Virus record (IMG/VR): IMGVR_UViG_3300045988_020332
Strand: one strand, 5' to 3'
Source: a virus
Length of the DNA: 45,014 bases
The notes below the pieces were generated by a model. The model saw only the letters and a list, made by a program, of their open reading frames with translations, did not search any database and was not told where the DNA came from. Of the stretch, positions 1 through 45,014 are shown piece by piece. Position 1 is the stretch's first letter; the number at the start of each line of letters is the position of its first letter. The position numbers and the translations under genes are program-made.

Positions 1-99
1 AAAAAAATATACACCGCAACGGAAACTCACTTGATTAAACCAATGGAATACACCGCAACAAAAGCAGTAACGTATATTTGGGTGCAATACAAAAAAAAT
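1..99. repeat. Terminal direct repeat copy 1, identical to 44916..45014 (circular assembly overlap)
   Basis: Read directly: AAAAAAATATACACCGCAACGG...GGTGCAATACAAAAAAAAT occurs at both window ends. Confidence 0.95.
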
Positions 100-783
100 G
101 ATGGAATTAAAGCGACCGTATCAACAAATACGGATGAGATTTATAACAGCAGTGCAATCAGTCAATTATCTTTATTAAGATATAGATTTTCTAGTGCTAT
201 TTGCGTGGGGGATAGCTTGACAGTCGGAAAACAACCTGATGATACAAGTCGAGATAATTACCCATTGTATTTAAGCAGAATGACAGGGATGAAAATAACA
301 AATGCGGGTCAGAGTGGAGCAACAGCAAAAGCATGGTGGGATAATTGGCAGACAACATACAGTTATGCAGATTATGATTGTGCTTTTATCTGCCTAGGTA
401 CAAATGGTGGGGTTGTAAAAGATAGTGATAATTACAATGCGTATATTTCTATAATTGACAAAATGCAAGCAGATAATCCAAATATTGCTATTTTCCTTTT
501 AGACTGTGTCGGTAATAACTCAGATGGAACAGATGCAAATGAAATCATTAAAGGGATTGCAGATGCAAAAGGGATAGATATGCTTAATGTCTTTTTGAAT
601 GATAAGATTTGGTTAGCTGGCGTAAATGGACAAGCACAAAGTCCTACTCACGATATGAAAGGAGACCCTACGCATTTAAGTCCTATGGGTTATTTGTTAC
701 TTGCAAACAATGTTGTTCACGAAATGTGCAGGGTTATGTTTGAAAATATGGATAATTACAATCAGAGATTTACGCCAAGTTAA
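1..783 (+). CDS. C-terminal part of the same protein: SGNH/GDSL hydrolase (esterase) domain
   Basis: All four SGNH blocks are readable: ICVGDSLTVG (GDS at 208..216), NAGQSGAT, ICLGTNGG, GDPTHLSPMGY (DxxH). The frame is continuous with 44064..45014 through the 99-nt overlap. Confidence 0.8.
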   Translation, partial: KKIYTATETHLIKPMEYTATKAVTYIWVQYKKNDGIKATVSTNTDEIYNSSAISQLSLLRYRFSSAICVGDSLTVGKQPDDTSRDNYPLYLSRMTGMKITNAGQSGATAKAWWDNWQTTYSYADYDCAFICLGTNGGVVKDSDNYNAYISIIDKMQADNPNIAIFLLDCVGNNSDGTDANEIIKGIADAKGIDMLNVFLNDKIWLAGVNGQAQSPTHDMKGDPTHLSPMGYLLLANNVVHEMCRVMFENMDNYNQRFTPS

Positions 784-817: not shown

Positions 818-857
818 AAACATGTACCACGACTTTTGACGAAAGAGGTGATATGCT
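818..857 (+). promoter_or_regulatory. Late-promoter-like element copy 1: box AAACATGTACCACGACTTTT, 11 nt, TGATATGCT
   Basis: One mismatch to the identical boxes at 5731 and 40591, with the same 11-nt spacing to a TGnTAnnnT element. Intergenic. Confidence 0.55.
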
Positions 858-917
858 ATACTTAGTCCAGAATATTTACGTCGGATAACAGAGGGCAGCG
901 AGCAGATTGCAGAAGAA

Positions 918-2102
918 TTGCATCAGTATATCATCTCTGAGATCGTGTCGAGAATGGTAGCAAGAATCGGCAGAGGCGAGGACTATATTTTGACCAACGC
1001 TGATGCGTGGAGAATCAGAACGCTACAGGAATCCGGTGAACTACTAGAGGACATTCTGGCAGAATTATCCAAATACACCAAACGTGAACAGCAGGAACTC
1101 CTTGAAGCGTTTGAAGATGCCGGAATCACTGCAATGAACTACGATGACAAGGTATATAAGGCGGCAGGATTAATCCCTGTGCCGCTTGAACAATCCCCAG
1201 CCATGATAAGGCTTATGGAGCGGAATATGAACCACTGCCTAGGAGATTGGAAGAACTTCACACGAACAACCGCAAGTGCCGCTCAGAAGCTCTATATCGA
1301 GCAATGCGACCTTGCATATAATCATGTGATGACTGGGGCAGTTGGGTATACGCAAGCCATTAAAGAGGCAGTTAATAACGTTGTGAGTGATGGTGTATAT
1401 GTTGAATACATAAACAAAGAGACAGGAAAGAAAAGACGCGATACAATCGAAACAGCAGTAGCACGTTCCGTCAGAACCGGTGTGGCGCAGGCTACGGGAG
1501 ATATATCCCTAAAACGCATGGAAGAAATGGACTGGGATTTAGTTTTGGTCAGTGCTCACATGGGAGCTAGAACAGGTGATGGCGGTGAGAATCCCGGAAA
1601 CCACTCATGGTGGCAAGGCAAGATATACTCTCGTTCTGGCAAGAGTAAGAAATTTCCACCGTTCTCATTGACCGGATATGGGACAGCAAGCGGACTGTCA
1701 GGAGTCAATTGTCGGCATAGCTTTGGGGCAAGTGATGGGGAATTCAACCCCTATGCAGAACTATCAGCACAGGATAAAGCTGATAAAGGCAAGCAGTACG
1801 AAAAAGAACAACGGCAACGTACTTACGAGCGAAGAATCCGAAAGACGAAGCGTGAAGTCCTTGGACTACAAGCAGGAGTTGAAAATGCACCGAATGAAAA
1901 GGCAAAATTCGCACTCCAGCAAGACCTTGACCGGAAGTCTTATCTTTTGCAGAAACAAAATGCTGCATACAAAGATTACTGTAAGCAGAATGGCCTGAGA
2001 GAACTGCAAGACCGGCTCATGATCGCTAAGTGGAACCGCCAGAACGCTGCAAAAGCCAGAGGAGCGGCAAGACGATATAAAACAGCAAAGGGGATTGACT
2101 GA
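918..2102 (+). CDS. Minor head/head-morphogenesis protein, MuF / SPP1 gp7-like (minor capsid protein 2 type)
   Basis: Motifs HMGARTGDGGENPGNHSWWQGKIY and GVNCRHSF. The position after portal is typical. The frame is open from 852 and the first canonical start is TTG at 918, so the true start is uncertain. Confidence 0.75.
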   Translation: MHQYIISEIVSRMVARIGRGEDYILTNADAWRIRTLQESGELLEDILAELSKYTKREQQELLEAFEDAGITAMNYDDKVYKAAGLIPVPLEQSPAMIRLMERNMNHCLGDWKNFTRTTASAAQKLYIEQCDLAYNHVMTGAVGYTQAIKEAVNNVVSDGVYVEYINKETGKKRRDTIETAVARSVRTGVAQATGDISLKRMEEMDWDLVLVSAHMGARTGDGGENPGNHSWWQGKIYSRSGKSKKFPPFSLTGYGTASGLSGVNCRHSFGASDGEFNPYAELSAQDKADKGKQYEKEQRQRTYERRIRKTKREVLGLQAGVENAPNEKAKFALQQDLDRKSYLLQKQNAAYKDYCKQNGLRELQDRLMIAKWNRQNAAKARGAARRYKTAKGID

Positions 2103-2482
2103 TGGATAGATGGGAATATTACAATCCAAATCCTGCCGGGAATCGAGTCGGAGATTGCGCTGTCCGGGCAATATGCAAAGCAACCGGGTTTGACTGGGAA
2201 ACGGTATTCGCCGGATTAATGATACAGGCATGTGCTCTGTCAGATATGCCGAGCGCAAATTATGTCTGGGGAGCGTACCTCTATAAGCATGGATACAGAC
2301 GCAAACTGATTGAGCAGTCAGAACGATATATCTATACAGTCAATGACTTTTGCGCAGATCATCCGACAGGTACATATATCCTCTGCATAGATGGCCATGT
2401 GGTGACAGCGCAGAACGGCAAATATTTCGATACATGGGATAGTGGTAATGAGATCCCGGTATATTACTGGGAAAAGGAGTAG
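2102..2482 (+). CDS. Small putative papain/NlpC-like cysteine peptidase-fold protein (Cys-His-Asp candidates), coupled to the MuF-like gene
   Basis: ATGA start/stop overlap with the upstream gene. GDCAVRA (Cys), DGHVV (His) and DTWDS (Asp) occur in the order and spacing of a catalytic triad. Confidence 0.4.
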   Translation: MDRWEYYNPNPAGNRVGDCAVRAICKATGFDWETVFAGLMIQACALSDMPSANYVWGAYLYKHGYRRKLIEQSERYIYTVNDFCADHPTGTYILCIDGHVVTAQNGKYFDTWDSGNEIPVYYWEKE

Positions 2483-2486
2483 CTAA

Positions 2487-2792
2487 ATGAGCATACAGGA
2501 ATTTATTCAATTGTTTCTTTCAGTCTGCGGAGGAGTGTCCATTGTTGGAGGTGCAGCAGCTGTAATCTTTAAATGGATTACACCGGCGTTCCGACTCAAT
2601 AAGCGAGTAGAGACACTGGAAGAACATGATAGACGAGATTATGAAAGTCTTCGGAGAATTGCAGAACGAGATTCATTAATTCTGGAAGTATTGTCGACCA
2701 TGCTGGACAGTCAGATCAGCGGCAACAATGTGGAGGAATTAAAAAAAACAAAACAGAAGCTTACAAATTATCTTGCACAGAATCAACGTTAA
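2487..2792 (+). CDS. Single-pass membrane protein with a charged coiled-coil tail (BhlA/UviB-holin-like architecture)
   Basis: N-terminal hydrophobic helix FLSVCGGVSIVGGAAAVIFKWI followed by a charged helical region. RBS GGAG upstream. Confidence 0.4.
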   Translation: MSIQEFIQLFLSVCGGVSIVGGAAAVIFKWITPAFRLNKRVETLEEHDRRDYESLRRIAERDSLILEVLSTMLDSQISGNNVEELKKTKQKLTNYLAQNQR

Positions 2793-2815
2793 TTGCATTA
2801 ATAAGGGGTATGCTC

Positions 2816-3016
2816 ATGAAGTTATATGTATTCACTAAGAAAGATATAGACAGGTTCTTGACAGAGTGTAATTTCACACCGGATGAAGAAAGACTGTTCC
2901 GGCTGAGATGCAAGGAATATACGCTTGAGTACTGTGCTGAACAGATGAATGTGAGCATGTCCACGGCGAAACGATTAAGCCGGAGGGTGAATAATAAAAT
3001 AATTAAAGTATGCTGA
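2816..3016 (+). CDS. Small sigma-70 region-4-like / LuxR-type HTH protein (candidate late-gene regulator)
   Basis: DEERLFRLRCKEYTLEYCAEQMNVSMSTAKRLSRRVNNKI resembles a region 4.2 HTH. AAGGGG sits 7 nt before ATG 2816. The track start at 2810 is too close to the RBS. Confidence 0.5.
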   Translation: MKLYVFTKKDIDRFLTECNFTPDEERLFRLRCKEYTLEYCAEQMNVSMSTAKRLSRRVNNKIIKVC

Positions 3017-3039
3017 TACTTTTTGGACACTAATTAGAG

Positions 3040-3070
3040 CCAGAAACGAACTGTTTCCGGTTCTTTTTTT
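3040..3070 (+). terminator. Rho-independent terminator
   Basis: Stem CCAGAAAC/GTTTCCGG (one mismatch) followed by TTCTTTTTTT. Confidence 0.7.
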
Positions 3071-3104
3071 ATGCAAAAATATAATCAGAAAGGCGGTGCA
3101 TAAG

Positions 3105-3575
3105 ATGGCATTATATAACAATCCTTATCAATACAGTTTTGGTGTTCCGGGACAGATGAATCAGTTTCAGCAGCAGCCTGTCCAGATGCCGGCTCAACCA
3201 GTACAGCAACCCCAGCAGAATAACAATGGCATCCTGTGGGTGTCTGGAGAAGTCGGCGCAAAATCTTATCTGGTAGCACCCGGAACAAGTGTTTTACTGA
3301 TGGACAGTGAGAGCGAAAAGTTCTACATAAAATCCACGGACGTTTCCGGTATGCCACAGCCATTACGGACGTTTGAGTATCATGAAGTAGGCACTCAGAT
3401 GCCACCTAAACAGCCTGTTCAGAACATGGACAGTAAATACGTCACCAGACAGGAATATGATGATTTAAAGGGCAAATACGAAGCTATCATAAACCGATTA
3501 AATTCTTTTTCTGAACCTGTTAGAGCTAATACCGTGCAGGAATCAGCGGTCAAGGGAGGAAACGCAGATGAGTAA
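3105..3575 (+). CDS. Hypothetical protein with a Gln/Pro-rich N-terminus and a compact beta-rich core
   Basis: RBS GAAAGGCGG lies 9 nt before ATG 3105. N-terminus QMNQFQQQPVQMPAQPVQQPQQNNN, then ILWVSGEVGAKSYLVAPGTSVLLMD. Confidence 0.6.
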   Translation: MALYNNPYQYSFGVPGQMNQFQQQPVQMPAQPVQQPQQNNNGILWVSGEVGAKSYLVAPGTSVLLMDSESEKFYIKSTDVSGMPQPLRTFEYHEVGTQMPPKQPVQNMDSKYVTRQEYDDLKGKYEAIINRLNSFSEPVRANTVQESAVKGGNADE

Positions 3576-3789
3576 TCCATTATTCAACGCACTTGGTGGT
3601 GGAATGCCGCAGGGTAACGGTCCGATGCAAATGATACAGCAGTTTATGCAGTTCAAACAGAATTTTAAGGGAGACCCAAAGGAAGAAGTCCAGAAGATGC
3701 TACAGTCTGGAAAGATTTCCCAGCAGCAACTTAATCAGGTTCAGCAGATGGCAGGGCAGTTTCAGAATCTGCTGAAGAATATGAAATAG
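3568..3789 (+). CDS. Small Gln-rich hypothetical protein
   Basis: 16 Gln in 73 aa by my count. The start overlaps the upstream stop. Confidence 0.55.
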   Translation: MSNPLFNALGGGMPQGNGPMQMIQQFMQFKQNFKGDPKEEVQKMLQSGKISQQQLNQVQQMAGQFQNLLKNMK

Positions 3790-3843
3790 TACATTACAAT
3801 CTGGCCAGATTGATGTAAATACACAATAAAGGAGATTATAACT

Positions 3844-4623
3844 ATGGATGGAAATTATAGCTTAGCAGATATTGCCGCTGCTACTGGAAACGGTAGAAAT
3901 AATGATGGTATGTTTGGCGGAGATGGTGCATGGTGGCTTATCGTGCTTTTCTTATTCGTATTCTGCGGATGGGGAAACAACGGCTGGGGAAATAATGGCA
4001 ATGGAGGCGGATATGCAGCCACAGCAGCTACTCAGGCAGACATTCAGAGAGGATTCGATAATTCCGCAGTAATCAGCAAGCTTGATGGAATCAATAACGG
4101 TCTCTGTGATGGATTTTACGCAGTGAACAACGGTATGCTTACCGGTTTTAATGGAATCAATACAAACATCATGCAGACTGGATTTGGAATCCAGCAGGCA
4201 ATCAATGCCGATACTGTAGCAAATATGCAGAACACCAGCGCATTGCAGTCTCAGTTAGCTCAGTGTTGCTGCGACAACAGGGCGGGACAGGCACAGATCA
4301 GATATGATATGGCTACCAACGCCTGTGCAATCCAGAACACCATGAACAACAACACAAGAGACATTATTGACAGTCAGAATGCAGGAACAAGAGCAATTCT
4401 TGATTATCTTTGCAATGAAAAGATTTCTTCTCTTCAGGCTGAAAACAATGATCTCAGACGTGCTGCTTCTCAGGATCGCCAGAGTGCACTTCTCACAACT
4501 GCAATGGCTTCACAGACACAGCAGCTCATTAATGCGATCAATCCAGCACCGATTCCGGCATATCAGGTTCCTAATCCGAACACATTTTACGGATGCGGAT
4601 GCAACACTGGATGCAATTGCTGA
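3844..4623 (+). CDS. Asn/Gln/Cys-rich membrane-anchored hypothetical protein
   Basis: RBS AAAGGAG. TM helix WWLIVLFLFVFCGW followed by GNNGWGNNGNGGG. 36 Asn in 259 aa by my count. CCC triplet and C-terminal GCGCNTGCNC. Confidence 0.65.
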   Translation: MDGNYSLADIAAATGNGRNNDGMFGGDGAWWLIVLFLFVFCGWGNNGWGNNGNGGGYAATAATQADIQRGFDNSAVISKLDGINNGLCDGFYAVNNGMLTGFNGINTNIMQTGFGIQQAINADTVANMQNTSALQSQLAQCCCDNRAGQAQIRYDMATNACAIQNTMNNNTRDIIDSQNAGTRAILDYLCNEKISSLQAENNDLRRAASQDRQSALLTTAMASQTQQLINAINPAPIPAYQVPNPNTFYGCGCNTGCNC

Positions 4624-4687
4624 TAACTTCATATCGAGAGTATCTTTCGATTGATTCGAATGTCGGCTTATGCCGTATTACACAGAG

Positions 4688-4711
4688 GGGCAGGCTGAGA
4701 CCTGTCCTTTT
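4688..4711 (+). terminator. Hairpin plus short T-run (weak terminator or attenuator)
   Basis: GGGCAGG / CCTGTCC (one G-U pair), 6-nt loop, then TTTT. Confidence 0.45.
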
Positions 4712-4734
4712 GTGATACGAAAGGAGTATTTTTT

Positions 4735-5157
4735 ATGGCAGAATTTACAAATGTAGCTGCTCAGACTGTAGCAGCAAATGGAAACGTAGTATTTTCAAAC
4801 ACAGCAGTTAAAGGTTCTAACTGTATTCAGCACAGAGAGGGAAGCGGAATCATCACCCTGAGAGGACTTACTAACCAGTGCAAAGCGAGATTCTTCGTGG
4901 ATTTTTCTGGTAATATCGCAATTCCAACAGGCGGCACTGTCGGAGCTATTTCTCTGGCTATTGCAATTTCTGGTGAGCCGGTTCTTTCTTCACAGATGAT
5001 TTCCACACCGGCAGCAGTAGATCAGTATAACAATGTGTCCTCTGGTATCTATATTGACGTACCTCGCGGATGTTGCGTTAATATCGCAGTAGAGAACACA
5101 AGCGATCAGGATGTTTCTGTTGCGAACGCAAACATTGTTGTGACTAGAGAAGCGTAG
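4735..5157 (+). CDS. Hypothetical beta-rich protein, possibly a TNF/C1q-like jelly-roll as in BclA-type exosporium C-terminal domains
   Basis: RBS GAAAGGAG. Alternating beta-strand pattern (IITLRG, ARFFVDFSGNIAIP, ISLAIAISGE, VNIAVEN, ANANIVVTR). The family assignment is from memory only. Confidence 0.35.
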   Translation: MAEFTNVAAQTVAANGNVVFSNTAVKGSNCIQHREGSGIITLRGLTNQCKARFFVDFSGNIAIPTGGTVGAISLAIAISGEPVLSSQMISTPAAVDQYNNVSSGIYIDVPRGCCVNIAVENTSDQDVSVANANIVVTREA

Positions 5158-5168
5158 GAGGTGCAGTT

Positions 5169-5723
5169 ATGAGAGATATTAAAGACTTATGTGCAAGAAT
5201 TGAAGACGAACTGTCCAAAATCGCTGACAATGGACTGACCACCGGAAATCTGGAAATGACATACAAACTGATTGATATGTACAAAGATATCAAGAATACG
5301 TATTACTGGGACAAGAAAGTGGAGTACTACAACACTGTCCTTAATGAGATGCGTGGCGGATACAATGACGATTACAGCGAACGTGGAAGAAAGCGTGACA
5401 GCATGGGGAGATACAGCGCAAATGACGGTAGAATGATGCCGGATTACGACAGAGGCAGTTCTTACGCCAGACGTGGTGAGCATTATGTCAGAGGGCATTA
5501 CAGCCGCTCTGACGGACGAGATGCTTATGACGACTATATGACACAGAAACAGAGCTATCGTTCTGGCAAGTCTGAGGACTGCAAAAGGAAGATGCTTGCC
5601 GCATTGGAAGAACACCTTGACGAACTCACAACGGAAATGAGTGATATGTCCAAGGACGCAGAGTGCCGGGAGGAACGTGATCTTGTTAAAAGATACGTGG
5701 AAAAGCTCCGGGACATGCTCTAA
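5169..5723 (+). CDS. Hypothetical protein with helical ends and a Arg/Asp/Tyr/Gly/Ser-rich low-complexity centre
   Basis: RBS GGAGGTG. Centre: RGRKRDSMGRYSANDGRMMPDYDRGSSYARRGEHYVRGHYSRSDGRDAYDDY. Confidence 0.55.
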   Translation: MRDIKDLCARIEDELSKIADNGLTTGNLEMTYKLIDMYKDIKNTYYWDKKVEYYNTVLNEMRGGYNDDYSERGRKRDSMGRYSANDGRMMPDYDRGSSYARRGEHYVRGHYSRSDGRDAYDDYMTQKQSYRSGKSEDCKRKMLAALEEHLDELTTEMSDMSKDAECREERDLVKRYVEKLRDML

Positions 5724-5730
5724 TTGGCTA

Positions 5731-5770
5731 AAACATGTACCACAACTTTTTAAAGGGTCTGTGGTAAAAT
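5731..5770 (+). promoter_or_regulatory. Late-promoter-like element copy 2: box AAACATGTACCACAACTTTT, 11 nt, TGGTAAAAT
   Basis: The 20-mer is identical to 40591..40610, with the same spacing to an extended -10. Intergenic, upstream of the leader, tRNA and scaffold. Confidence 0.6.
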
Positions 5771-6090
5771 GTATTCATAAGGAAGATTCGTAAGTGGTTG
5801 ATACTACTTGACATAGACATTTTTTCATTGACTCCTCCTTTCTTGGGTGCGTGTCCTTAATAGAAACAGGTTTGGACGGAATCTGGAGGTTGAAAAGCGG
5901 ACGCAATTTCCGACACGTACCATTGCCGTTAGTGCATGACGGCATACCTCCTTGTGAGCATATAACTGAATAGTGGAATCCAACCCGTGCAGAGGTGTGC
6001 GACCGTATAGGCGGTGTTGACGTAGCCCGAAACGTCTCGTGTTTAGGCATAGCACGTAAAATACCTTGCTAACCCGGGAATCCGGGTTAA

Positions 6091-6163
6091 TGGGATATAG
6101 CTCAGTTGGTAGAGCATCTGACTGTTAATCAGAGTGTCACAGGTTCGATTCCTGTTATTCCAG
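6091..6163 (+). tRNA. tRNA-Asn: tRNA-Asn (anticodon GTT), 73 nt, CCA not encoded
   Basis: Folded by hand. Acceptor TGGGATA/TATTCCA (one G-U pair), D arm GCTC-AGTTGGTA-GAGC, anticodon arm TCTGA-CTGTTAA-TCAGA, variable GTGTC, T arm ACAGG-TTCGATT-CCTGT, discriminator G. Confidence 0.9.
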
Positions 6164-6241
6164 CTACCCTGCCAGTGGTCTAACTGGCTTAATCCACTTA
6201 CCTGCGGCGGCAGGTCAATAAACACGACCAGGAGGATATAT

Positions 6242-9709: not shown

Positions 9710-10201
9710 ATGAGTAAGATTCATCATTTTAAAGGATTCTCCGTAGTCGATGGAGATATGAAAATCAAGTTGAATATGGATAGATTCTCCAGACAGTACC
9801 AAGAAGCCCAGTATCTCCTTGATGGAATGGTTATGGACAGTATGATAGAGTTTATGCCAATGATTTCGGGAGATTTTATTGACCGAACAAGAGTCAAAAG
9901 TACATCAATGCAAGGGACTGGATTTGTATGCGCTGCGGCTGCTCCTTATGGACGTTTTCTTTATTTTGGAAAAACCATGGTAGACCCCGCAACAGGTAGT
10001 ACATGGGCAAGACACGATGCGGAAAAGGTTCTTGTGAGCCAGTACTCCGGTAAAACGAATGCAAAAGAAAATCTTCAATATACAAAATCACCGCATACTC
10101 AGGCGCAAGCTGAATGGTTCGATGCCGCTAAACGAAAATACGGCAGTACATGGATTCGCAAGGTAAAAGCACAGGCAGGAGGTGGCAGACATGGCGGATA
10201 A
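9710..10201 (+). CDS. Head-tail joining protein (minor capsid/HK97 gp10-like candidate)
   Basis: ATG 9710 directly follows the upstream stop. Assigned by position in the module. Confidence 0.45.
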   Translation: MSKIHHFKGFSVVDGDMKIKLNMDRFSRQYQEAQYLLDGMVMDSMIEFMPMISGDFIDRTRVKSTSMQGTGFVCAAAAPYGRFLYFGKTMVDPATGSTWARHDAEKVLVSQYSGKTNAKENLQYTKSPHTQAQAEWFDAAKRKYGSTWIRKVKAQAGGGRHGG

Positions 10202-10691
10202 ACCTATCGGAGTAGATGCAACCGGATATGATATTCTGACAGATGCCATGAAAGCACTTCTGAACCAGTATCCGGGACTATACGACAATGAAATAATCAA
10301 GTTTGAAGAACTTGGCAAGGAATCAGGAATTGCGTTCTCAGCAGACAACGGTGCCTTGATTTATTCAGAAAAAGAGGACGTTTGTGGAACAATGCATCAG
10401 ATATGCCAGTATCCGTTCTATGTAGTATACCGAACAGCATCCGACAAGGAAAGGCAGAAATTGTCTGTCCAGAAATTCCTTGACAGTCTTGGCAAATGGA
10501 TATGTCGAGAACCAGTTGTCATAAATGGCTCTGAGACGCGTTTAGATGCGTTTCCTGAGCTTTCGCAAGGGCGAGTGATAAAACGTATCACCCGTGGCAA
10601 CTCCTACGGTACAGAACCACAGGAGAACGGCGTACAGGACTGGTTATTGCCATTGTCAGTACGCTACGAAAACACTTATGAAGTAATATAG
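10191..10691 (+). CDS. Tail completion/terminator candidate (hypothetical)
   Basis: GGAGGTGG RBS before ATG 10191. Sits directly upstream of the major tail gene. Confidence 0.4.
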   Translation: MADKPIGVDATGYDILTDAMKALLNQYPGLYDNEIIKFEELGKESGIAFSADNGALIYSEKEDVCGTMHQICQYPFYVVYRTASDKERQKLSVQKFLDSLGKWICREPVVINGSETRLDAFPELSQGRVIKRITRGNSYGTEPQENGVQDWLLPLSVRYENTYEVI

Positions 10692-36843: not shown

Positions 36844-37155
36844 ATGCTGACAAGGAATAAAAAACTGAAAGACTACGGTATTCCGGCAGAGGACATAGAA
36901 AAACTGAATACGATGCTGAAAGACTTCCCGGCAGAGTACGGATACCTGCTTTCCGGTGCCGCCTTGTCAGCTTGCCCGAAAAACACGGTGATAGCGGATA
37001 TGGTTATTGAGAATATCTTACACCGGAAGAGCTATAGGAAAATCAGCAAAGAAAGATATATCCCGATGAATCCGAAAGACTTCTACGGATACAGGCGCAA
37101 GACCGTCGCTGTACTGTATGAGAGAATGCGGTTGTTGGGAGTGTGGGAGGAATAA
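36844..37155 (+). CDS. Possible sigma-like/ArpU-like transcription regulator
   Basis: The C-terminal FYGYRRKTVAVLYERMRLLG resembles a region-4-type helix. Weak call. Confidence 0.3.
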   Translation: MLTRNKKLKDYGIPAEDIEKLNTMLKDFPAEYGYLLSGAALSACPKNTVIADMVIENILHRKSYRKISKERYIPMNPKDFYGYRRKTVAVLYERMRLLGVWEE

Positions 37156-40284: not shown

Positions 40285-40530
40285 ATGAAAAACATCGATA
40301 AAATGAAACAAAATATAGTAAAACAAATTGAAAATATGAGCGTTGAGAAATTTGAAAAGTTTGCATCGGTTTTGGACGGATCCACGGATATGCCAAAGGG
40401 ATTGATAGATACATCAGTTTTATTTGATTGTGTGAAATGTCAGAAAACATATAGCTGTTCTGGAGAAGATGATGATTTTGAGCAATGCTCAAATAGATTT
40501 AGAGAATATGCATTGAGAGAAGAAAAATAA
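40285..40530 (+). CDS. 81-aa hypothetical protein forming its own promoter-gene-terminator unit just upstream of terS
   Basis: AAAGGAGAAAG RBS. CVKCQKTYSCSG...C cysteine cluster. Confidence 0.55.
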   Translation: MKNIDKMKQNIVKQIENMSVEKFEKFASVLDGSTDMPKGLIDTSVLFDCVKCQKTYSCSGEDDDFEQCSNRFREYALREEK

Positions 40531-40548
40531 ATATGTTTATAAAATTAG

Positions 40549-40576
40549 AGAGTCGGTATTTACCGGCTCTTTTTTA
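40549..40576 (+). terminator. Rho-independent terminator
   Basis: AGAGTCGG / CCGGCTCT stem (one G-U pair) followed by TTTTTT. Confidence 0.75.
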
Positions 40577-40590
40577 ACGCAAAATTCATC

Positions 40591-40630
40591 AAACATGTAC
40601 CACAACTTTTCCGCTGACCTGTGATAGAAT
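40591..40630 (+). promoter_or_regulatory. Late-promoter-like element copy 3: box AAACATGTACCACAACTTTT, 11 nt, TGATAGAAT
   Basis: The 20-mer is identical to 5731..5750. Lies between the terminator and terS. Confidence 0.6.
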
Positions 40631-40680: not shown

Positions 40681-41118
40681 GTGGGAATGACACCAATGTA
40701 CACAAGTGCCGTAGAAATAGAAGATAAAATAGAACAGTATTTTGAAAACTGCAAAGGCTATCCTTTGACTGATAGTAAGGGAAAGCAAATATTTAATAAA
40801 TTTGGTTCACCCATATTCGTAGACGTTCACCCTCCGACCGTTACAGGGCTTGCTTTGGCACTTGGCTTTAATAGCCGACAGAGTCTTTTAAACTATCAGG
40901 GAAAAGCAGAATTCATGGACACGATAACGCGCGCGAAAGCCAGAGTGGAACAGTATACAGAAGAAAGATTATTTGATCGTGACGGTTCAAATGGTGCTCA
41001 GTTCAGCTTGAGAAATAATTTTAAGGGATGGGATGCTGACAAGAAAAATGATGATTCTGGAGATGGAAAGATTACGATTGTGAATAATATTCCGAGGTCG
41101 GAGAAACAGAATGAATGA
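40681..41118 (+). CDS. terS: Terminase small subunit
   Basis: PPTVTGLALALGFNSRQSLLNY HTH typical of TerS. GGAGGTGA RBS. Start is GTG 40681 or ATG 40687. Confidence 0.8.
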   Translation: MGMTPMYTSAVEIEDKIEQYFENCKGYPLTDSKGKQIFNKFGSPIFVDVHPPTVTGLALALGFNSRQSLLNYQGKAEFMDTITRAKARVEQYTEERLFDRDGSNGAQFSLRNNFKGWDADKKNDDSGDGKITIVNNIPRSEKQNE

Positions 41119-42367
41119 AAATCCGATTAATCTGAATGAAATTATAGCTCCAGCTTTTTACAATGTATTCTGGGATATTCTGGATGGCAAGCACACTTAT
41201 TATGATTTGTATGGAGGACGTGGATCAACTAAATCATCTTTTGTAGGTGTTATGATTCCTTTCCAGATGATGCAAGATGCTATTAATGGATCAATAACTA
41301 ATGCAGTCATATTCCGAAAAGTTGGAAATACACTCCGAGAATCTGTGTATGAACAGATAGCATGGGGAATTGATGCACTTGGAGTTAATGACTTGTGGGA
41401 TACCAGTGTAAGCCCTATGCAGTACACTTATAAGCCTACTGGACAGAAAATCATATTCAGAGGACTGGACAAGGCAAAAAAGACTAAATCTATTAAAGCA
41501 AGCAAGGGATATTTCAAGTATCTCTGGTTCGAGGAACTTGACGAATTTTCTGGCATTGAAGAAATTCGTACAGTGCAGCAGTCAGTTCTTCGAGGTGGCA
41601 GTAAGTTTGTTGTATTTAAGACATTCAATCCGCCAATCAGCCGGAGCAACTGGGCGAATGTGTATGTAGAAGAGCCACGAGACGACAGCTACAGGCATAA
41701 GAGTGACTACAGATCAGTTCCTGTTGAATGGCTTGGTCAACAATTCCTTGATGATGCGGAGCATCTTAAAAAGACAAATCCAAGAGCCTATCAGCATGAA
41801 TATCTTGGATTGCCTGTCGGACTCGGTACAAATATCTTTGAGTTGTTGGAAATCCGAACGATTCCAGACGAAGAAATTCAGAAGTATCAAAGTGTCTATC
41901 AGGGACAAGACTGGGGATGGTATCCGGATCCCAAAGCGTTTATCCGTGTGGCTTATGTACCTAATCAGGACAAAGTTATTCTGCTGGATGAGCTTGGCGG
42001 ATGTAAAATTCGAAATACAGCAATGGCTAACCAGATAAAGAAAAAAGGATATGATGATTATTCAATATCTTGCGGAGTTGATGAAGAAGAAAGTATTATT
42101 GACTTCCGAGATGCAGGGCTTCCAGCACGTAGGGCCATTGTTACACCGGGAAGCCGCAAATATACATTTGAGTGGTTACAGTGCCGAACATTAGTCATTG
42201 ATCCGGCACGAACACCTAGAGCATACAAGGAAATTATAAATTATGAACATGAAGTAGATAGCAATGGAGAAGTTATCGCAGATTATCCGGATGGTAACGA
42301 TCACTGGATAGATTCTCTCAGGTATGCGACAAGTCCATTGTCAATGAGAAGAGGACATAGTGCATAA
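41111..42367 (+). CDS. terL: Terminase large subunit, PBSX/XtmB-like (headful type)
   Basis: Walker A YGGRGSTKS. Size 418 aa. Position. Confidence 0.85.
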   Translation: MNENPINLNEIIAPAFYNVFWDILDGKHTYYDLYGGRGSTKSSFVGVMIPFQMMQDAINGSITNAVIFRKVGNTLRESVYEQIAWGIDALGVNDLWDTSVSPMQYTYKPTGQKIIFRGLDKAKKTKSIKASKGYFKYLWFEELDEFSGIEEIRTVQQSVLRGGSKFVVFKTFNPPISRSNWANVYVEEPRDDSYRHKSDYRSVPVEWLGQQFLDDAEHLKKTNPRAYQHEYLGLPVGLGTNIFELLEIRTIPDEEIQKYQSVYQGQDWGWYPDPKAFIRVAYVPNQDKVILLDELGGCKIRNTAMANQIKKKGYDDYSISCGVDEEESIIDFRDAGLPARRAIVTPGSRKYTFEWLQCRTLVIDPARTPRAYKEIINYEHEVDSNGEVIADYPDGNDHWIDSLRYATSPLSMRRGHSA

Positions 42368-43812
42368 TGGGACTTATAACAACACTAAAAAGGTGGTTTA
42401 ACATGATATTCAAAAAACAAGCTGAAGAGGACTTCAATATCCAGGCAGCAGAATTTCCAGAAATGGAATCACTGATTAACCGGTGTGCGAACATCTACAG
42501 AGGTGCGCCGGAATGGTTAGATGATAAGAACAATATCAAGACGATTAATTTCGCGAAATCTGTCTGCTCAGAAACAGCTCGGCTCGCAACACTGGCGATC
42601 GGCATTCAGATAGACGGATCCGCAAGAGCTACGTGGCTGCAGGAGCAGATCGACAAGGTATATTTCCAGATTCGTCACTGGGTAGAATATGGCTGTGCCT
42701 ATGGAACAGTATTCATCAAGCCAAACGGTGAGAGCCTTGACATATTCACTCCGGCAGATGTGATGATTGTGGACTATGATAATCAGGAAATTAAGGGGAT
42801 TATATTCAAGAATTCTTACACTGTTGGTCGGAAATACTATACACGGCTTGAATATCATAGGTTTGTTGAGACCACCGTGGACGGCGTGACGACCTACCCG
42901 TACTACGTTTCTAACAGAGCCTATGTATCAAAATCCCCTCAATCAATCGGTGATAAAATTGACCTTAAACAAACCAAATGGGCTGACCTTATGGCAGATA
43001 CACCACCGATTCTCAAAGCAAATGGTGAGAAGCTAGATGGACCTCTGTACGGAGTACTTCGGACACCACAGGCAAATAATGTAGATATCAGTACACCGCT
43101 TGGACTTCCGATTTTTGCAGAAGCCATTGAAGAGTTAAAAGACCTCGACATTGCATACAGCCGTAATGCCGGAGAAATTTTTGATTCTCAGAAGATTGTT
43201 CTGGCAGATGATAGACTGCTGATGCCAAGTGGCACGCCTGTATCAGCTATGTCACCACAGGGCATGGAGAACAGGCGGAAAGAGATGAACTTACCGCACT
43301 TTGTCAAGAATGTATTCGGACAGGACGAGAAAGAGTTCTATCAAGAAATCAATCCACAACTCAACACAGATACCCGTATAGCCGGCATAAACGCTCTTTT
43401 AAGCCAGTTAGGATATAAAATTGGATTCTCTAACGGATATTTTGTTTTCAACGAATCTAGTGGCATTCAGACGGCTACGGGAGTAGAAGCAGAACAGCAG
43501 AGGACAGTGCAATTCATAAAAGATGTTCGAGATAAGTTGGAATCCTGCCTGGATGAAGTTATTTACGCATTGAACGTCTATGCTGACCTGTACGGACTTA
43601 CACCTGTCGGAGCTTATGAAGTCAATTATGATTTTGGAGACATCCTGTATGTGCGCGAAAACGACCGCGCGAGATGGTGGCAGTATGTGACTACTGGCAA
43701 GGTTCCGGCATGGCTGTATTTTGTGAAGTTCGAGGGAATGACTGAGGAAGAAGCTAGAGCAATGGTCAAAGAGGCTCAGCCAGACGAACCAACATTATTC
43801 GGAGAGGAGTAA
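42367..43812 (+). CDS. Portal protein (SPP1 gp6-like)
   Basis: 481 aa immediately after terL. ATAATG overlap. Confidence 0.8.
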   Translation: MGLITTLKRWFNMIFKKQAEEDFNIQAAEFPEMESLINRCANIYRGAPEWLDDKNNIKTINFAKSVCSETARLATLAIGIQIDGSARATWLQEQIDKVYFQIRHWVEYGCAYGTVFIKPNGESLDIFTPADVMIVDYDNQEIKGIIFKNSYTVGRKYYTRLEYHRFVETTVDGVTTYPYYVSNRAYVSKSPQSIGDKIDLKQTKWADLMADTPPILKANGEKLDGPLYGVLRTPQANNVDISTPLGLPIFAEAIEELKDLDIAYSRNAGEIFDSQKIVLADDRLLMPSGTPVSAMSPQGMENRRKEMNLPHFVKNVFGQDEKEFYQEINPQLNTDTRIAGINALLSQLGYKIGFSNGYFVFNESSGIQTATGVEAEQQRTVQFIKDVRDKLESCLDEVIYALNVYADLYGLTPVGAYEVNYDFGDILYVRENDRARWWQYVTTGKVPAWLYFVKFEGMTEEEARAMVKEAQPDEPTLFGEE

Positions 43813-43816
43813 AAAG

Positions 43817-44071
43817 ATGGCAGACAAACCAGTAACGCGAGAAGAAAAGTACCTCGCATATCTGACAGGTGATTATACAGGCGAAATTCCGAAGCCGATC
43901 ACGAGGAAAGAAAAGTACCTGTACAAACTCTGTGCAGACGGAATTGGAACCAGTAAAGAAGCTATAGCAGAAGCAGTTCAGACATACCTGTCCGATAAGG
44001 GCGTTGGACTTAGCATGGATGCAGATGGCTATGTGAGTTTGAAAGCAACGGAGGGAAATAGTAATGACTGA
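43817..44071 (+). CDS. Small protein with duplicated T-R-x-E-K-Y-L motif
   Basis: VTREEKYLAYLTGDYTGEIPKPITRKEKYLYKL. Confidence 0.5.
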   Translation: MADKPVTREEKYLAYLTGDYTGEIPKPITRKEKYLYKLCADGIGTSKEAIAEAVQTYLSDKGVGLSMDADGYVSLKATEGNSND

Positions 44072-45014
44072 TGTATTTAAGGGAATAATCACAGCAGATG
44101 GAAAGAAAAGGCAGCTACCTTACGATGCAGTGTTGGACAGGCCAGTTTCTGATAAAACGTTATCTGAAGAGGGCGGCTTTGCGGATGCTAAAGTGGTAGG
44201 GGACAATTTCAAAAAAACAAAGGCAGAAACTGATTCACTGAAGGAAGATTTAGACGATATAGGAACGTTTACAAAATCACCCAATCTAGTAAACCCATCA
44301 GAGCTTAGACACGATTATTCTATTGGTAGTGACGGAAATCCTGTGGCAAGTGACGGACTTGTGATAACAGGGAAAATCAAAGTAGACAAGTCTATTCAGT
44401 ATGTGAGCAAGCATAATATTTTTTATAATTTATACTTGTATGATAACGATAATTTTGTAGGACAAATAAACACATACAAACAGTATAACAACGGATTTTT
44501 AATAGACTTGCCATCTATCAGCACTAATTTTGATAGTGTTATTATTTGTTATAAATATTCTGAAATGACAGAGCCATATTACTTTGGCAGTAAGGATGAT
44601 TTCGATGCCTATGGATTCGTGGAATACTATGACAAATTTGTTTTCGGAGAAAAAACACATGGCTCAGTAGATGAAAATATGCTCTCTGATGAAATAAAGG
44701 AAAAATTAAACAATGATGAAGAGGTCAACTTATTGCCATATGAAACTATTAAAGGAGTAGTTAATTGGAATGGAAAAATTGGCTCTATAGACGGTTTTAA
44801 TATTGCCAAGTTTAAATTGGCAATCGGTCAGCATATAAAAGTATATTGTAATCCAGTTACAGGCGATACATCACATGTTGCAATGGGAGAATATTTCTAC
44901 AATAATACTATTCTCAAAAAAATATACACCGCAACGGAAACTCACTTGATTAAACCAATGGAATACACCGCAACAAAAGCAGTAACGTATATTTGGGTGC
45001 AATACAAAAAAAAT
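44064..45014 (+). CDS. N-terminal part of the junction-spanning protein (about 544 aa in total). The N-terminus looks like a fibre or tail-associated protein. This ORF is absent from the supplied ORF track.
   Basis: ATG at 44064 overlaps the previous stop (ATGACTGA). The frame is open for 317 codons to the window end and continues in frame at nt 100 (frame of ORF 31..783). N-terminal motif: LPYDAVLDRPVSDKTLSEEGGFADAKVVGDNF. Confidence 0.8.
   Translation, partial: MTDVFKGIITADGKKRQLPYDAVLDRPVSDKTLSEEGGFADAKVVGDNFKKTKAETDSLKEDLDDIGTFTKSPNLVNPSELRHDYSIGSDGNPVASDGLVITGKIKVDKSIQYVSKHNIFYNLYLYDNDNFVGQINTYKQYNNGFLIDLPSISTNFDSVIICYKYSEMTEPYYFGSKDDFDAYGFVEYYDKFVFGEKTHGSVDENMLSDEIKEKLNNDEEVNLLPYETIKGVVNWNGKIGSIDGFNIAKFKLAIGQHIKVYCNPVTGDTSHVAMGEYFYNNTILKKIYTATETHLIKPMEYTATKAVTYIWVQYKKN
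44916..45014. repeat. Terminal direct repeat copy 2, identical to 1..99
   Basis: Same 99-nt string as the window start. Confidence 0.95.

Follow-up and report, generated by a model that had tools for sequence, protein, structure and literature searches.

The viral record IMGVR_UViG_3300045988_020332 (45,014 nucleotides, hereafter the window) is the complete circular genome (44,915 bp) of a temperate siphovirus. It carries a 20-bp box, AAACATGTACCACAACTTTT, that, with a probability we put at roughly two-thirds (0.68), serves as the upstream recognition element of late promoters and would be read by a small phage protein of an uncharacterized family. The box is found exactly at 5731-5750 (copy 2) and 40591-40610 (copy 3) and, with one mismatch (A14G), as AAACATGTACCACGACTTTT at 818-837 (copy 1), always on the + strand. 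Judging from sequence comparison, copies 2 and 3 very probably belong to factor-dependent late promoters, because an allele swap between related phages changes a candidate regulator and both of these boxes together.

The repetition and the geometry described in the first-pass annotation of this sequence held up. The chance expectation for the box is 0.02, three matches were obtained in none of 100 shuffles, and a pattern scan at up to three mismatches returned no further match in the window. Read base by base, the box is separated by exactly 11 nt from a 9-mer TGnTAnnnT in each copy (TGATATGCT at 849-857, TGGTAAAAT at 5762-5770, and TGATAGAAT at 40622-40630). All three copies are intergenic, as had been stated, and precede a Phage_min_cap2/MuF gene (copy 1), a RAGATH-21/tRNA/scaffold/capsid block (copy 2), and the terS-terL-portal genes (copy 3). 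The absence of a -35 element was likewise borne out: at a 17-nt spacer the -35 position reads ACAACT, two of six positions matching TTGACA, and scans for sigma-70 consensus promoters called a promoter at 0/3 box sites. The TGnTAnnnT element itself is present in all copies, but the fuller Gram-positive -16 motif, TGTG-n-TAnAAT, is confined to copies 2 and 3, whose hexamers match the consensus at 5/6 positions in addition to TRTG; copy 1 has only GGTG. Sites fitting TRTGnTAnnnT number only 17 in the whole window, both strands included. An A with a pyrimidine before it lies 7 nt past each hexamer, at 864, 5777, and 40637.

Scanned in related phages, as had been suggested, the motif kept its spacing while the spacer sequence varied and the -10 element changed at tolerated positions. 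The exact-pattern scan of viral contigs recovered at least 120 loci from related human-gut phages (individual loci are designated L below), with three sites as in the window and 43 usable instances per site for flank analysis. As the box was the search pattern, its own invariance in these relatives is uninformative and it is the flanks that inform. The spacer measured 11 nt in 104/104 distinct instances and took 12 different sequences at copy 2 and 15 at copy 3. The 9-mer was present in all but one of the 104 instances and varied at hexamer positions where -10 elements tolerate change: relatives have TAGAAT, TAAAAT, or TATGAT at copy 3, behind TGTG or TATG, both of which fit TRTG, and TGGTAAAAT, TGATACAAT, or TGGTACAAT at copy 2. 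At sites anchored independently of the box, it was found in 43/43 cases for copy 2, 44/45 for copy 3, and 46/47 for copy 1 (43 exact, three with one or two changes). At two loci (L007, position 3916, and L111, position 880), terS-type flanks enclose a terS-promoter site whose spacer and -10 are those of the scaffold promoter (TGAAGGTTCTGTGGTAAAAT); the pattern suggests that the two promoters have exchanged sequence by patch recombination or gene conversion.

Support for a dedicated factor comes from a sister type of phage, with structural genes about 87% identical to the window's, that carries another box. The structural genes of MT835739 are 80-93% identical to those of the window, but its counterpart of the protein encoded at 36844-37155, our candidate regulator, is only 38% identical, and the gene (10192-10479 of MT835739, minus strand) lies directly upstream of terS. 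At the terS and scaffold promoters of this type, the window's box (W type) is replaced by another, AAAATGTGGGGACAAMTTTT (G type); both promoters of MT835739 read AAAATGTGGGGACAA(A/C)TTTT, 11 nt from TRTGnTAnnnT. The flanks of the scaffold promoter are homologous between W and G phages and the differences fall only at box positions 4-11, CATGTACC vs ATGTGGGG. G-type loci number at least 120, and the two types are equally common. The terS and scaffold boxes lie about 10 kb apart and switch together: promoter pairs were W/W in 11 cases, G/G in 12, G/W in one, and W/G in none, so that 23/24 were concordant (Fisher p = 1e-5). Median similarity between the types in the MuF-to-T2 block, from copy 1 to copy 2, is 0.86-0.92, equal to that within types, and the concordance is therefore not simply that of two separate clades. 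All W-type loci that reach far enough upstream carry the W regulator (15/15) and none the G regulator, while the G regulator adjoins 58/60 G-type terS promoters. The open reading frame (ORF) at 36844-37155, one of three candidate regulators named in the first-pass annotation, thereby gained support, with the W allele accompanying W boxes and the G allele G boxes. The sole discordant locus, L307, combines a terS promoter of the G type with a scaffold promoter of the W type, possibly owing to recent recombination or to chimeric assembly. Both regulator alleles occur at L230, L232, L233, L236, L247, L256, L305, L326, L328, and L338, the W allele 2.3-3.5 kb 5' of the G allele; L051 and L236 belong to a single contig, whose copy 1 has the W-phage allele.

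More distant phages, reached via homologues of two candidate regulators, lack the window's box and have boxes of their own, which were found by reading intergenic regions; de novo repeat search did not surface them. Each lineage places its box 26-28 nt (from the ATGT equivalent) 5' of a -10 hexamer. Five lineages, the window included, have it twice, before the packaging genes and before the tRNA/scaffold block: CAAAGGTGACCACAAAAA in L132, TGTGTACACAWA in L134/L135, AAATGTGCGYATAG in L136/L137, and AAATGTGGGGACGATTT in L225. The window additionally has a third copy. One site each was recovered in L138/L140, L226, and L227, with the design unchanged. The boxes take the common form AA-ATGT-N3/4-ACAA-(A/T)4, in which TGT...ACA is dyad-like and, in L134, forms a perfect 10-bp palindrome, and the order of terminator then box seen at copy 3 recurs in L132, L134, and L140. 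Scans for two rarer box types matched one locus each. One match is the terS promoter of L140; the other has an unrelated context, looks like chance, and was discarded.

From the sequence, spacing, conservation, and co-variation of these sites we infer that the box is bound, that binding activates rather than represses, where transcription would start, and which protein is the factor. Host polymerase with its primary sigma would read only the extended -10 (TRTG-n-TAnnnT), and the 20-bp site at about -46 to -27, with its dyad-like core ATGT-N3/4-ACAA, would replace the missing -35. A phage factor on the box, most likely the ~100-aa basic protein of 36844-37155 and probably as a dimer, would recruit or stabilize the polymerase. 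Early transcription would end at the terminator at 40547-40577, which closes the early/accessory gene block. Once the regulator had accumulated, transcription would restart at ~40637 and run through terS, terL, portal, the cargo genes, and MuF, and a second restart at ~5777 would serve the RAGATH-21 RNA, tRNA-Asn, scaffold, capsid, and probably the remaining late genes, as no further box promoter was found. Specificity would reside within ~8 bp (CATGTACC in the window vs ATGTGGGG in the sister type), making regulator allele and boxes matched pairs. Being short and identical, the boxes also serve as recombination joints.

The proposed regulator belongs to a family, phrog_11237, with no function assigned. 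An exhaustive profile search gathered 255 clusters (50% identity) of ~100-aa proteins that share the motif MRTRxKxxxDYG...YIPxxxxDFYGYRRK. AlphaFold models the regulator confidently (predicted local distance difference test score 88.9), with six helices, and a BFVD search matched only uncharacterized phage proteins. Of the conserved early genes, the regulator gene invariably stands last, ahead of the first box. It adjoins that box in L132, L136, L137, and the G-type phages; elsewhere 1-12 small ORFs intervene, which in the window amount to 3.4 kb. Lineages with similar boxes (G-type phages and L225; L134 and L227) have distinctive C-terminal regulator motifs in common. Regulators 79-96% identical to the window's occur in L141 and L145-L148, whose genome layout differs (10 kb were fetched, short of the late genes). 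In L132 the regulator gene seemingly starts with ATA or ATT (about 3803-3811).

Copy 1 differs from the other two. The MuF gene, whose start had been placed at 918, appears to begin at 858-860: if the ORF started at 918, the Pfam match would begin at profile position 22, and from 858 onward the differences among relatives are patterned as synonymous codon changes. A near-perfect Shine-Dalgarno (SD) sequence, AAAGAGGTGAT, includes the TG of the copy 1 "extended -10", and the predicted transcription start, A864, lies 6 nt inside the MuF ORF. In MuF starts sampled without reference to the box, it was present at 113/119; of these 113 box-bearing relatives, 68 use ATA as the MuF start codon and 45 use ATG. 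The box-less relatives L082, L149, and L162 retain SD/TGATATACT, while L180, in which the portal stop abuts MuF, has neither box nor SD/TGATATACT. The core of copy 1 never switches (126 W, 0 G). Its allele AAACATGTACCACAACATTT occurs in 16/17 G-type loci from phages without the W regulator, and the allele ...CGACTTTT in 20/28 W-type loci. The copy forms the exact left edge of homology at a hypervariable cargo/MuF junction: the 107 upstream flanks fall into 31 unrelated classes, the largest with a minus-strand cargo gene, and junctions lie inside or just past the box in L156, L030, and L103/L110. About 30-60 nt 5' of copy 1 in relatives such as L009, L044, and L109, many cargo cassettes end in TAATTAACTAA, which has stops in three frames, and an AT-rich inverted repeat, TTAACTAAAG...CTTTAGTTAA, lies between TAATTAACTAA and the box; together these may form a cassette boundary.

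Several observations weigh against the box being an activator site read by the protein of 36844-37155. Searches of this protein against Pfam, NCBIfam, and PDB sequences gave no match and detected no DNA-binding domain, and a PDB fold search with the model gave nothing significant (best E = 2; a weak KorA helix-turn-helix (HTH) match, probability 0.35). Across 11 lineages the correlation between protein and box is weak, driven by close pairs (Mantel r = 0.46, p = 0.002), and not significant by Spearman correlation; L138 has 66% protein identity to the window regulator and shares only half of the box. Ten G-type loci also carry the W regulator, the loci counted are not independent genomes, and, as regulator and terS box are adjacent in G-type phages, their association is partly linkage. 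The first-pass annotation saw in all three copies one phage-specific late promoter class. Fixed spacing, the separate boxes of other lineages, and the swap strongly support this for copies 2 and 3, but copy 1 is doubtful as a MuF promoter, with a -10 that coincides with the SD region, a start inside the ORF, and a core that never switches. Copy 1 might boost transcription from within the unit, yielding transcripts on which MuF is not translated, or it might bind the factor without acting as a promoter. Finally, an extended -10 matching the consensus at 5/6 positions is possibly active alone, and so fits repression as well.

Repression is, among the other explanations, the one that survives best, and we still consider it unlikely. 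The box would then be a repressor operator, and the extended -10 promoters, active by themselves, would be silenced in the lysogen or early in infection, perhaps by the ~100-aa protein itself. Besides the strength of the -10 elements, this explanation can draw on the overlap of the site with the core promoter and on the co-variation, which fits any sequence-specific binding protein equally. However, the gene of the ~100-aa protein lies outside the immunity region, box-like sequence is absent from the surroundings of the repressor/Cro region (~24.1-25.9 kb), and promoter 3 is already insulated by a terminator.

Somewhat less likely again is a phage sigma-like factor that replaces or remodels the host sigma, with the box as its -35-type element. 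The protein in question would be ORF 2810-3016, alone or with the 100-aa protein. This ORF, listed in the first-pass annotation as a candidate regulator (2816-3016), resembles sigma-70 region 4, although its TIGR02937 score is 22.4 bits against a cut-off of 42.9 and it has no Pfam match. CACAA at the -35 position is common to the window, L132, L134, and L227, and the recognition helix, STAKRLSRRVNNKII, is conserved across lineages. That same helix is nearly invariant in four lineages whose boxes differ, and in L225 the box promoters are present although the entire 2102-5723 block, ORF 2810-3016 included, is missing. The ORF is also downstream of the promoters it would activate, the -10 is a standard primary-sigma extended -10, and no region-2-like protein was found in the window. 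On this sequence evidence ORF 2810-3016 is probably not the specificity factor, and we rejected it as the reader of the box. GenBank copies of it are labelled 'ECF sigma factor', and the gene sits among head genes. The remaining candidate of the first-pass annotation, ORF 40285-40530, was also dropped: its product is acidic (isoelectric point (pI) 4.9) and without a family match, and in G-type phages the regulator gene takes its position.

The first-pass annotation had itself offered an alternative, a module-boundary recombination sequence. Taken alone, this would make the box a sequence that promotes exchange between phages, or a scar of it, with no role in transcription. Mosaic junctions do occur at it: copy 1 is an exact homology edge beside 31 unrelated cargo flanks, junctions fall in or just past the box at the loci named above, the copy-3 sites of L007 and L111 have the spacer and -10 of copy 2, and the phage encodes a Sak4-type annealing protein. 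Recombination of this kind appears to be a consequence of the box rather than its cause. It does not explain why 11 nt always separate the box from the -10, whose own variation is confined to tolerated positions, why the copies favour one strand, why other lineages have different boxes at the same promoter position, or why two boxes ~10 kb apart switch with the regulator allele, and we regard it as quite improbable. Least credible of all is a role for the box at the RNA level (processing or protein binding in read-through transcripts) or as a pac signal. In its favour, no terminator precedes copies 1 and 2, and transcripts from upstream would run through them; copy 3, for its part, adjoins terS. 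Against it, no significant RNA structure surrounds copies 1 and 2 (z = +1.95 and +0.68), copy 3 has a strong terminator ahead of it, and a fixed distance to the -10 is a property of DNA. A pac site would not be expected in three copies, and a pac role is also disfavoured by the terS leader/allele types, of which three different ones follow W boxes; box type is independent of terS allele. The spacing, the -10 variation, and the concerted swap are explained less well by any of these than by an activator-type recognition element.

The coordinates of the features discussed are given in Table 1. The first 99 bases of the window (1-99) are repeated exactly at 44916-45014, so that the sequence is circularly closed and ORFs crossing its ends went undetected by the ORF-listing program. 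The minus strand encodes an integrase, a Sie-like protein, and a repressor; other genes code for the Sak4 annealing protein, a primase-helicase, and SPP1-like packaging and head proteins. Read across the junction, the order is copy 3, terS, terL, portal, an 84-aa ORF, a 544-aa hydrolase, copy 1, the MuF-like gene, eight small ORFs, and copy 2, followed by RAGATH-21 RNA, tRNA-Asn, scaffold, and capsid. In relatives the portal-MuF slot is occupied by a wide range of unrelated cargo genes, which make up 31 flank classes and in some cases are encoded on the minus strand. A 259-aa ORF without a family match (3844-4623), located between MuF and copy 2, encodes a Gly/Asn/Cys-rich protein with the C-terminus ...YGCGCNTGCNC. 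The arrangement of RAGATH-21 and tRNA in one leader is also found in L132, downstream of its second box, and tRNAs stand at the corresponding place in L134 and L225; a literature search turned up no paper on RAGATH-21. Reverse transcriptase genes (RVT_1) in L132 (1734-2881) and L145 (613-1632) probably belong to diversity-generating retroelements, and the early region of L132 encodes a 64-aa protein matching the RNA polymerase alpha C-terminal domain (PF03118). A box scan of representative genome contigs gave 10 chance matches and one 345-nt contaminant contig, and a prophage in none.

Table 1 Features of the window relevant to the proposed late promoters
Feature	Position	Strand	Description
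MuF translation-initiation region	843-860	+	SD AAAGAGGTGAT, spacer, ATA start 858-860; contains -10-like TGATATGCT
Sigma-70 region-4-like HTH protein	2810-3016	+	68 aa; phrog_1190 2.9e-6; TIGR02937 7.5e-5
Terminator-like hairpin	3048-3070		Hairpin 3048-3063 and T run, after ORF 2810-3016
Box copy 2 (W-type)	5731-5750	+	Proposed operator for RAGATH-21/tRNA-Asn/scaffold/capsid transcription unit
Extended -10, promoter 2	5760-5770	+	TGTG-G-TAAAAT; predicted start A5777
RAGATH-21 RNA	5846-5921	+	Rfam RF03097, 90.8 bits vs gathering score 70.3; leader downstream of copy 2
tRNA-Asn (GTT)	6091-6164	+	Same leader as RAGATH-21
Candidate late regulator	36844-37155	+	103 aa, 12 kDa, pI 9.5, predicted all-helical, phrog_11237
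Intrinsic terminator	40547-40577	+	11-bp stem, -15.1 kcal/mol, z = -4.7, then U6; 14 nt 5' of box copy 3
Box copy 3 (W-type)	40591-40610	+	Proposed operator, about -46 to -27 of terS late promoter
Extended -10, terS late promoter	40620-40630	+	TGTG-A-TAGAAT, hexamer 40625-40630; predicted start A40637
terS	40681-41118	+	Pfam GP3_package
terL	41111-42367	+	Pfam Terminase_3
Portal	42367-43812	+	Pfam SPP1_portal
84-aa ORF	43817-44071		Between portal and 544-aa ORF
544-aa ORF	44064-45014 joined to 100-783		C-terminal GDSL/SGNH hydrolase domain; portal-MuF interval

From a biological perspective, late-gene switches time the commitment of temperate phages to packaging and lysis, and they also control transduction and the mobilization of satellites. 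To our knowledge, the late switches of uncultured gut phages are almost entirely unknown. The architecture described here (terminator, 20-bp box, 11 nt, TRTGnTAnnnT) can be searched for in viromes, it assigns genes to late transcription units in this phage group, and it points to a candidate regulator family that databases now list under "unknown function". A broader and more tentative proposal, to which we give less than even odds, is that the ~100-aa phrog_11237 proteins, for which no relative was detected among known transcription factors or solved structures, are an unrecognized family of late activators substituting for -35 recognition, that copy 1 is an internal promoter, and that W and G form orthogonal pairs. 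If so, a late activator family with a multi-promoter late regulon would span a large group of human-gut siphoviruses. A start inside MuF at copy 1, together with the frequent ATA codon, would keep MuF scarce and boost the downstream genes. With ~8 bp setting specificity, W and G would be two regulator-promoter pairs that are orthogonal by nature; as natural pairs ~8 bp apart they lend themselves to a comparison of specificity and could serve as orthogonal expression parts for Bacillota.

Small phage activators working next to a poor or missing -35 are known from several systems. The late promoter of lactococcal phage TP901-1, controlled by Alt, and the middle promoters of phi31 have no usable -35 and depend on a phage activator at or just 5' of the -35 region. 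Compared by description only, TP901-1 is alike in having a late promoter without a usable -35 and, as we propose here, a phage activator, and differs in that Alt is another protein family, the repeat region is longer, and only one late promoter is described. Mor and C of phage Mu and Ogr and Delta of P2 and P4 are small activators that bind dyads (TGT-N-ACA in the P2 family) at or just 5' of a poor -35 and serve several late promoters. A dyad-like site where the -35 would be and more than one proposed late promoter in a genome are also what we see, but those phages are Proteobacterial, Ogr is a zinc-finger protein acting at about -55 whereas the dyad here would be centred at about -37.5, and the sequences are unrelated. 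At the middle promoters of T4, the MotA box replaces the -35, host sigma reads the often extended -10, and the anti-sigma factor AsiA remodels region 4. The window resembles T4 in having a phage-specific box in place of the -35 and host sigma, by our proposal, on the -10. However, T4 needs the anti-sigma co-factor, the region-4-like ORF 2810-3016 does not co-vary with the box, and no MotA or AsiA homologue was found among the ORFs scanned. In mosaic phage genomes, short conserved linkers between genes mark the edges of exchanged modules. The box, above all copy 1, is like them in its identical short sequence, unrelated flanks, and hybrid junctions, but it shows the constraints of a regulatory site, and its part in recombination looks secondary.

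The closest functional parallel is with the Ltr late regulators of Gram-positive siphoviruses, which comprise RinA, ArpU, LtrA/Sigma70_r4, LtrB/DUF1492, and LtrC (PMC3753634, PMC3152322). Ltr proteins (~130 aa, 15 kDa; PMC3753634) bind a phage-specific site upstream of terS, and transcription of the packaging/morphogenesis/lysis operon does not start without them; phages differ in their cognate pairs of protein and site, and the regulator gene is separated from the promoter by a terminator (PMC3753634, PMC3152322). The sites are 3-4 direct 7-nt repeats right after the ltr gene, 5' of the terminator (PMC3753634, PMC3152322). The proposed regulator is similarly a small basic protein with its gene upstream of a late promoter. 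Here, in contrast, a single 20-bp box with a dyad-like core lies after the terminator and abuts the -10 region, with no direct-repeat array found; at least two promoters per genome carry it, and in the window 3.4 kb separate the regulator gene from the promoter. Searches of Pfam, PHROG, and NCBIfam matched neither the protein of 36844-37155 nor 43 relatives to any Ltr family, and hhalign gave probabilities of 0.3% against LtrC and 0.7% against a region-4-like family, with no match to a sigma region-4 fold. In function, therefore, the proposed switch resembles the Ltr systems, yet by sequence and predicted fold its regulator is not a member of them: the kind of phage control is a familiar one, and the parts are new.

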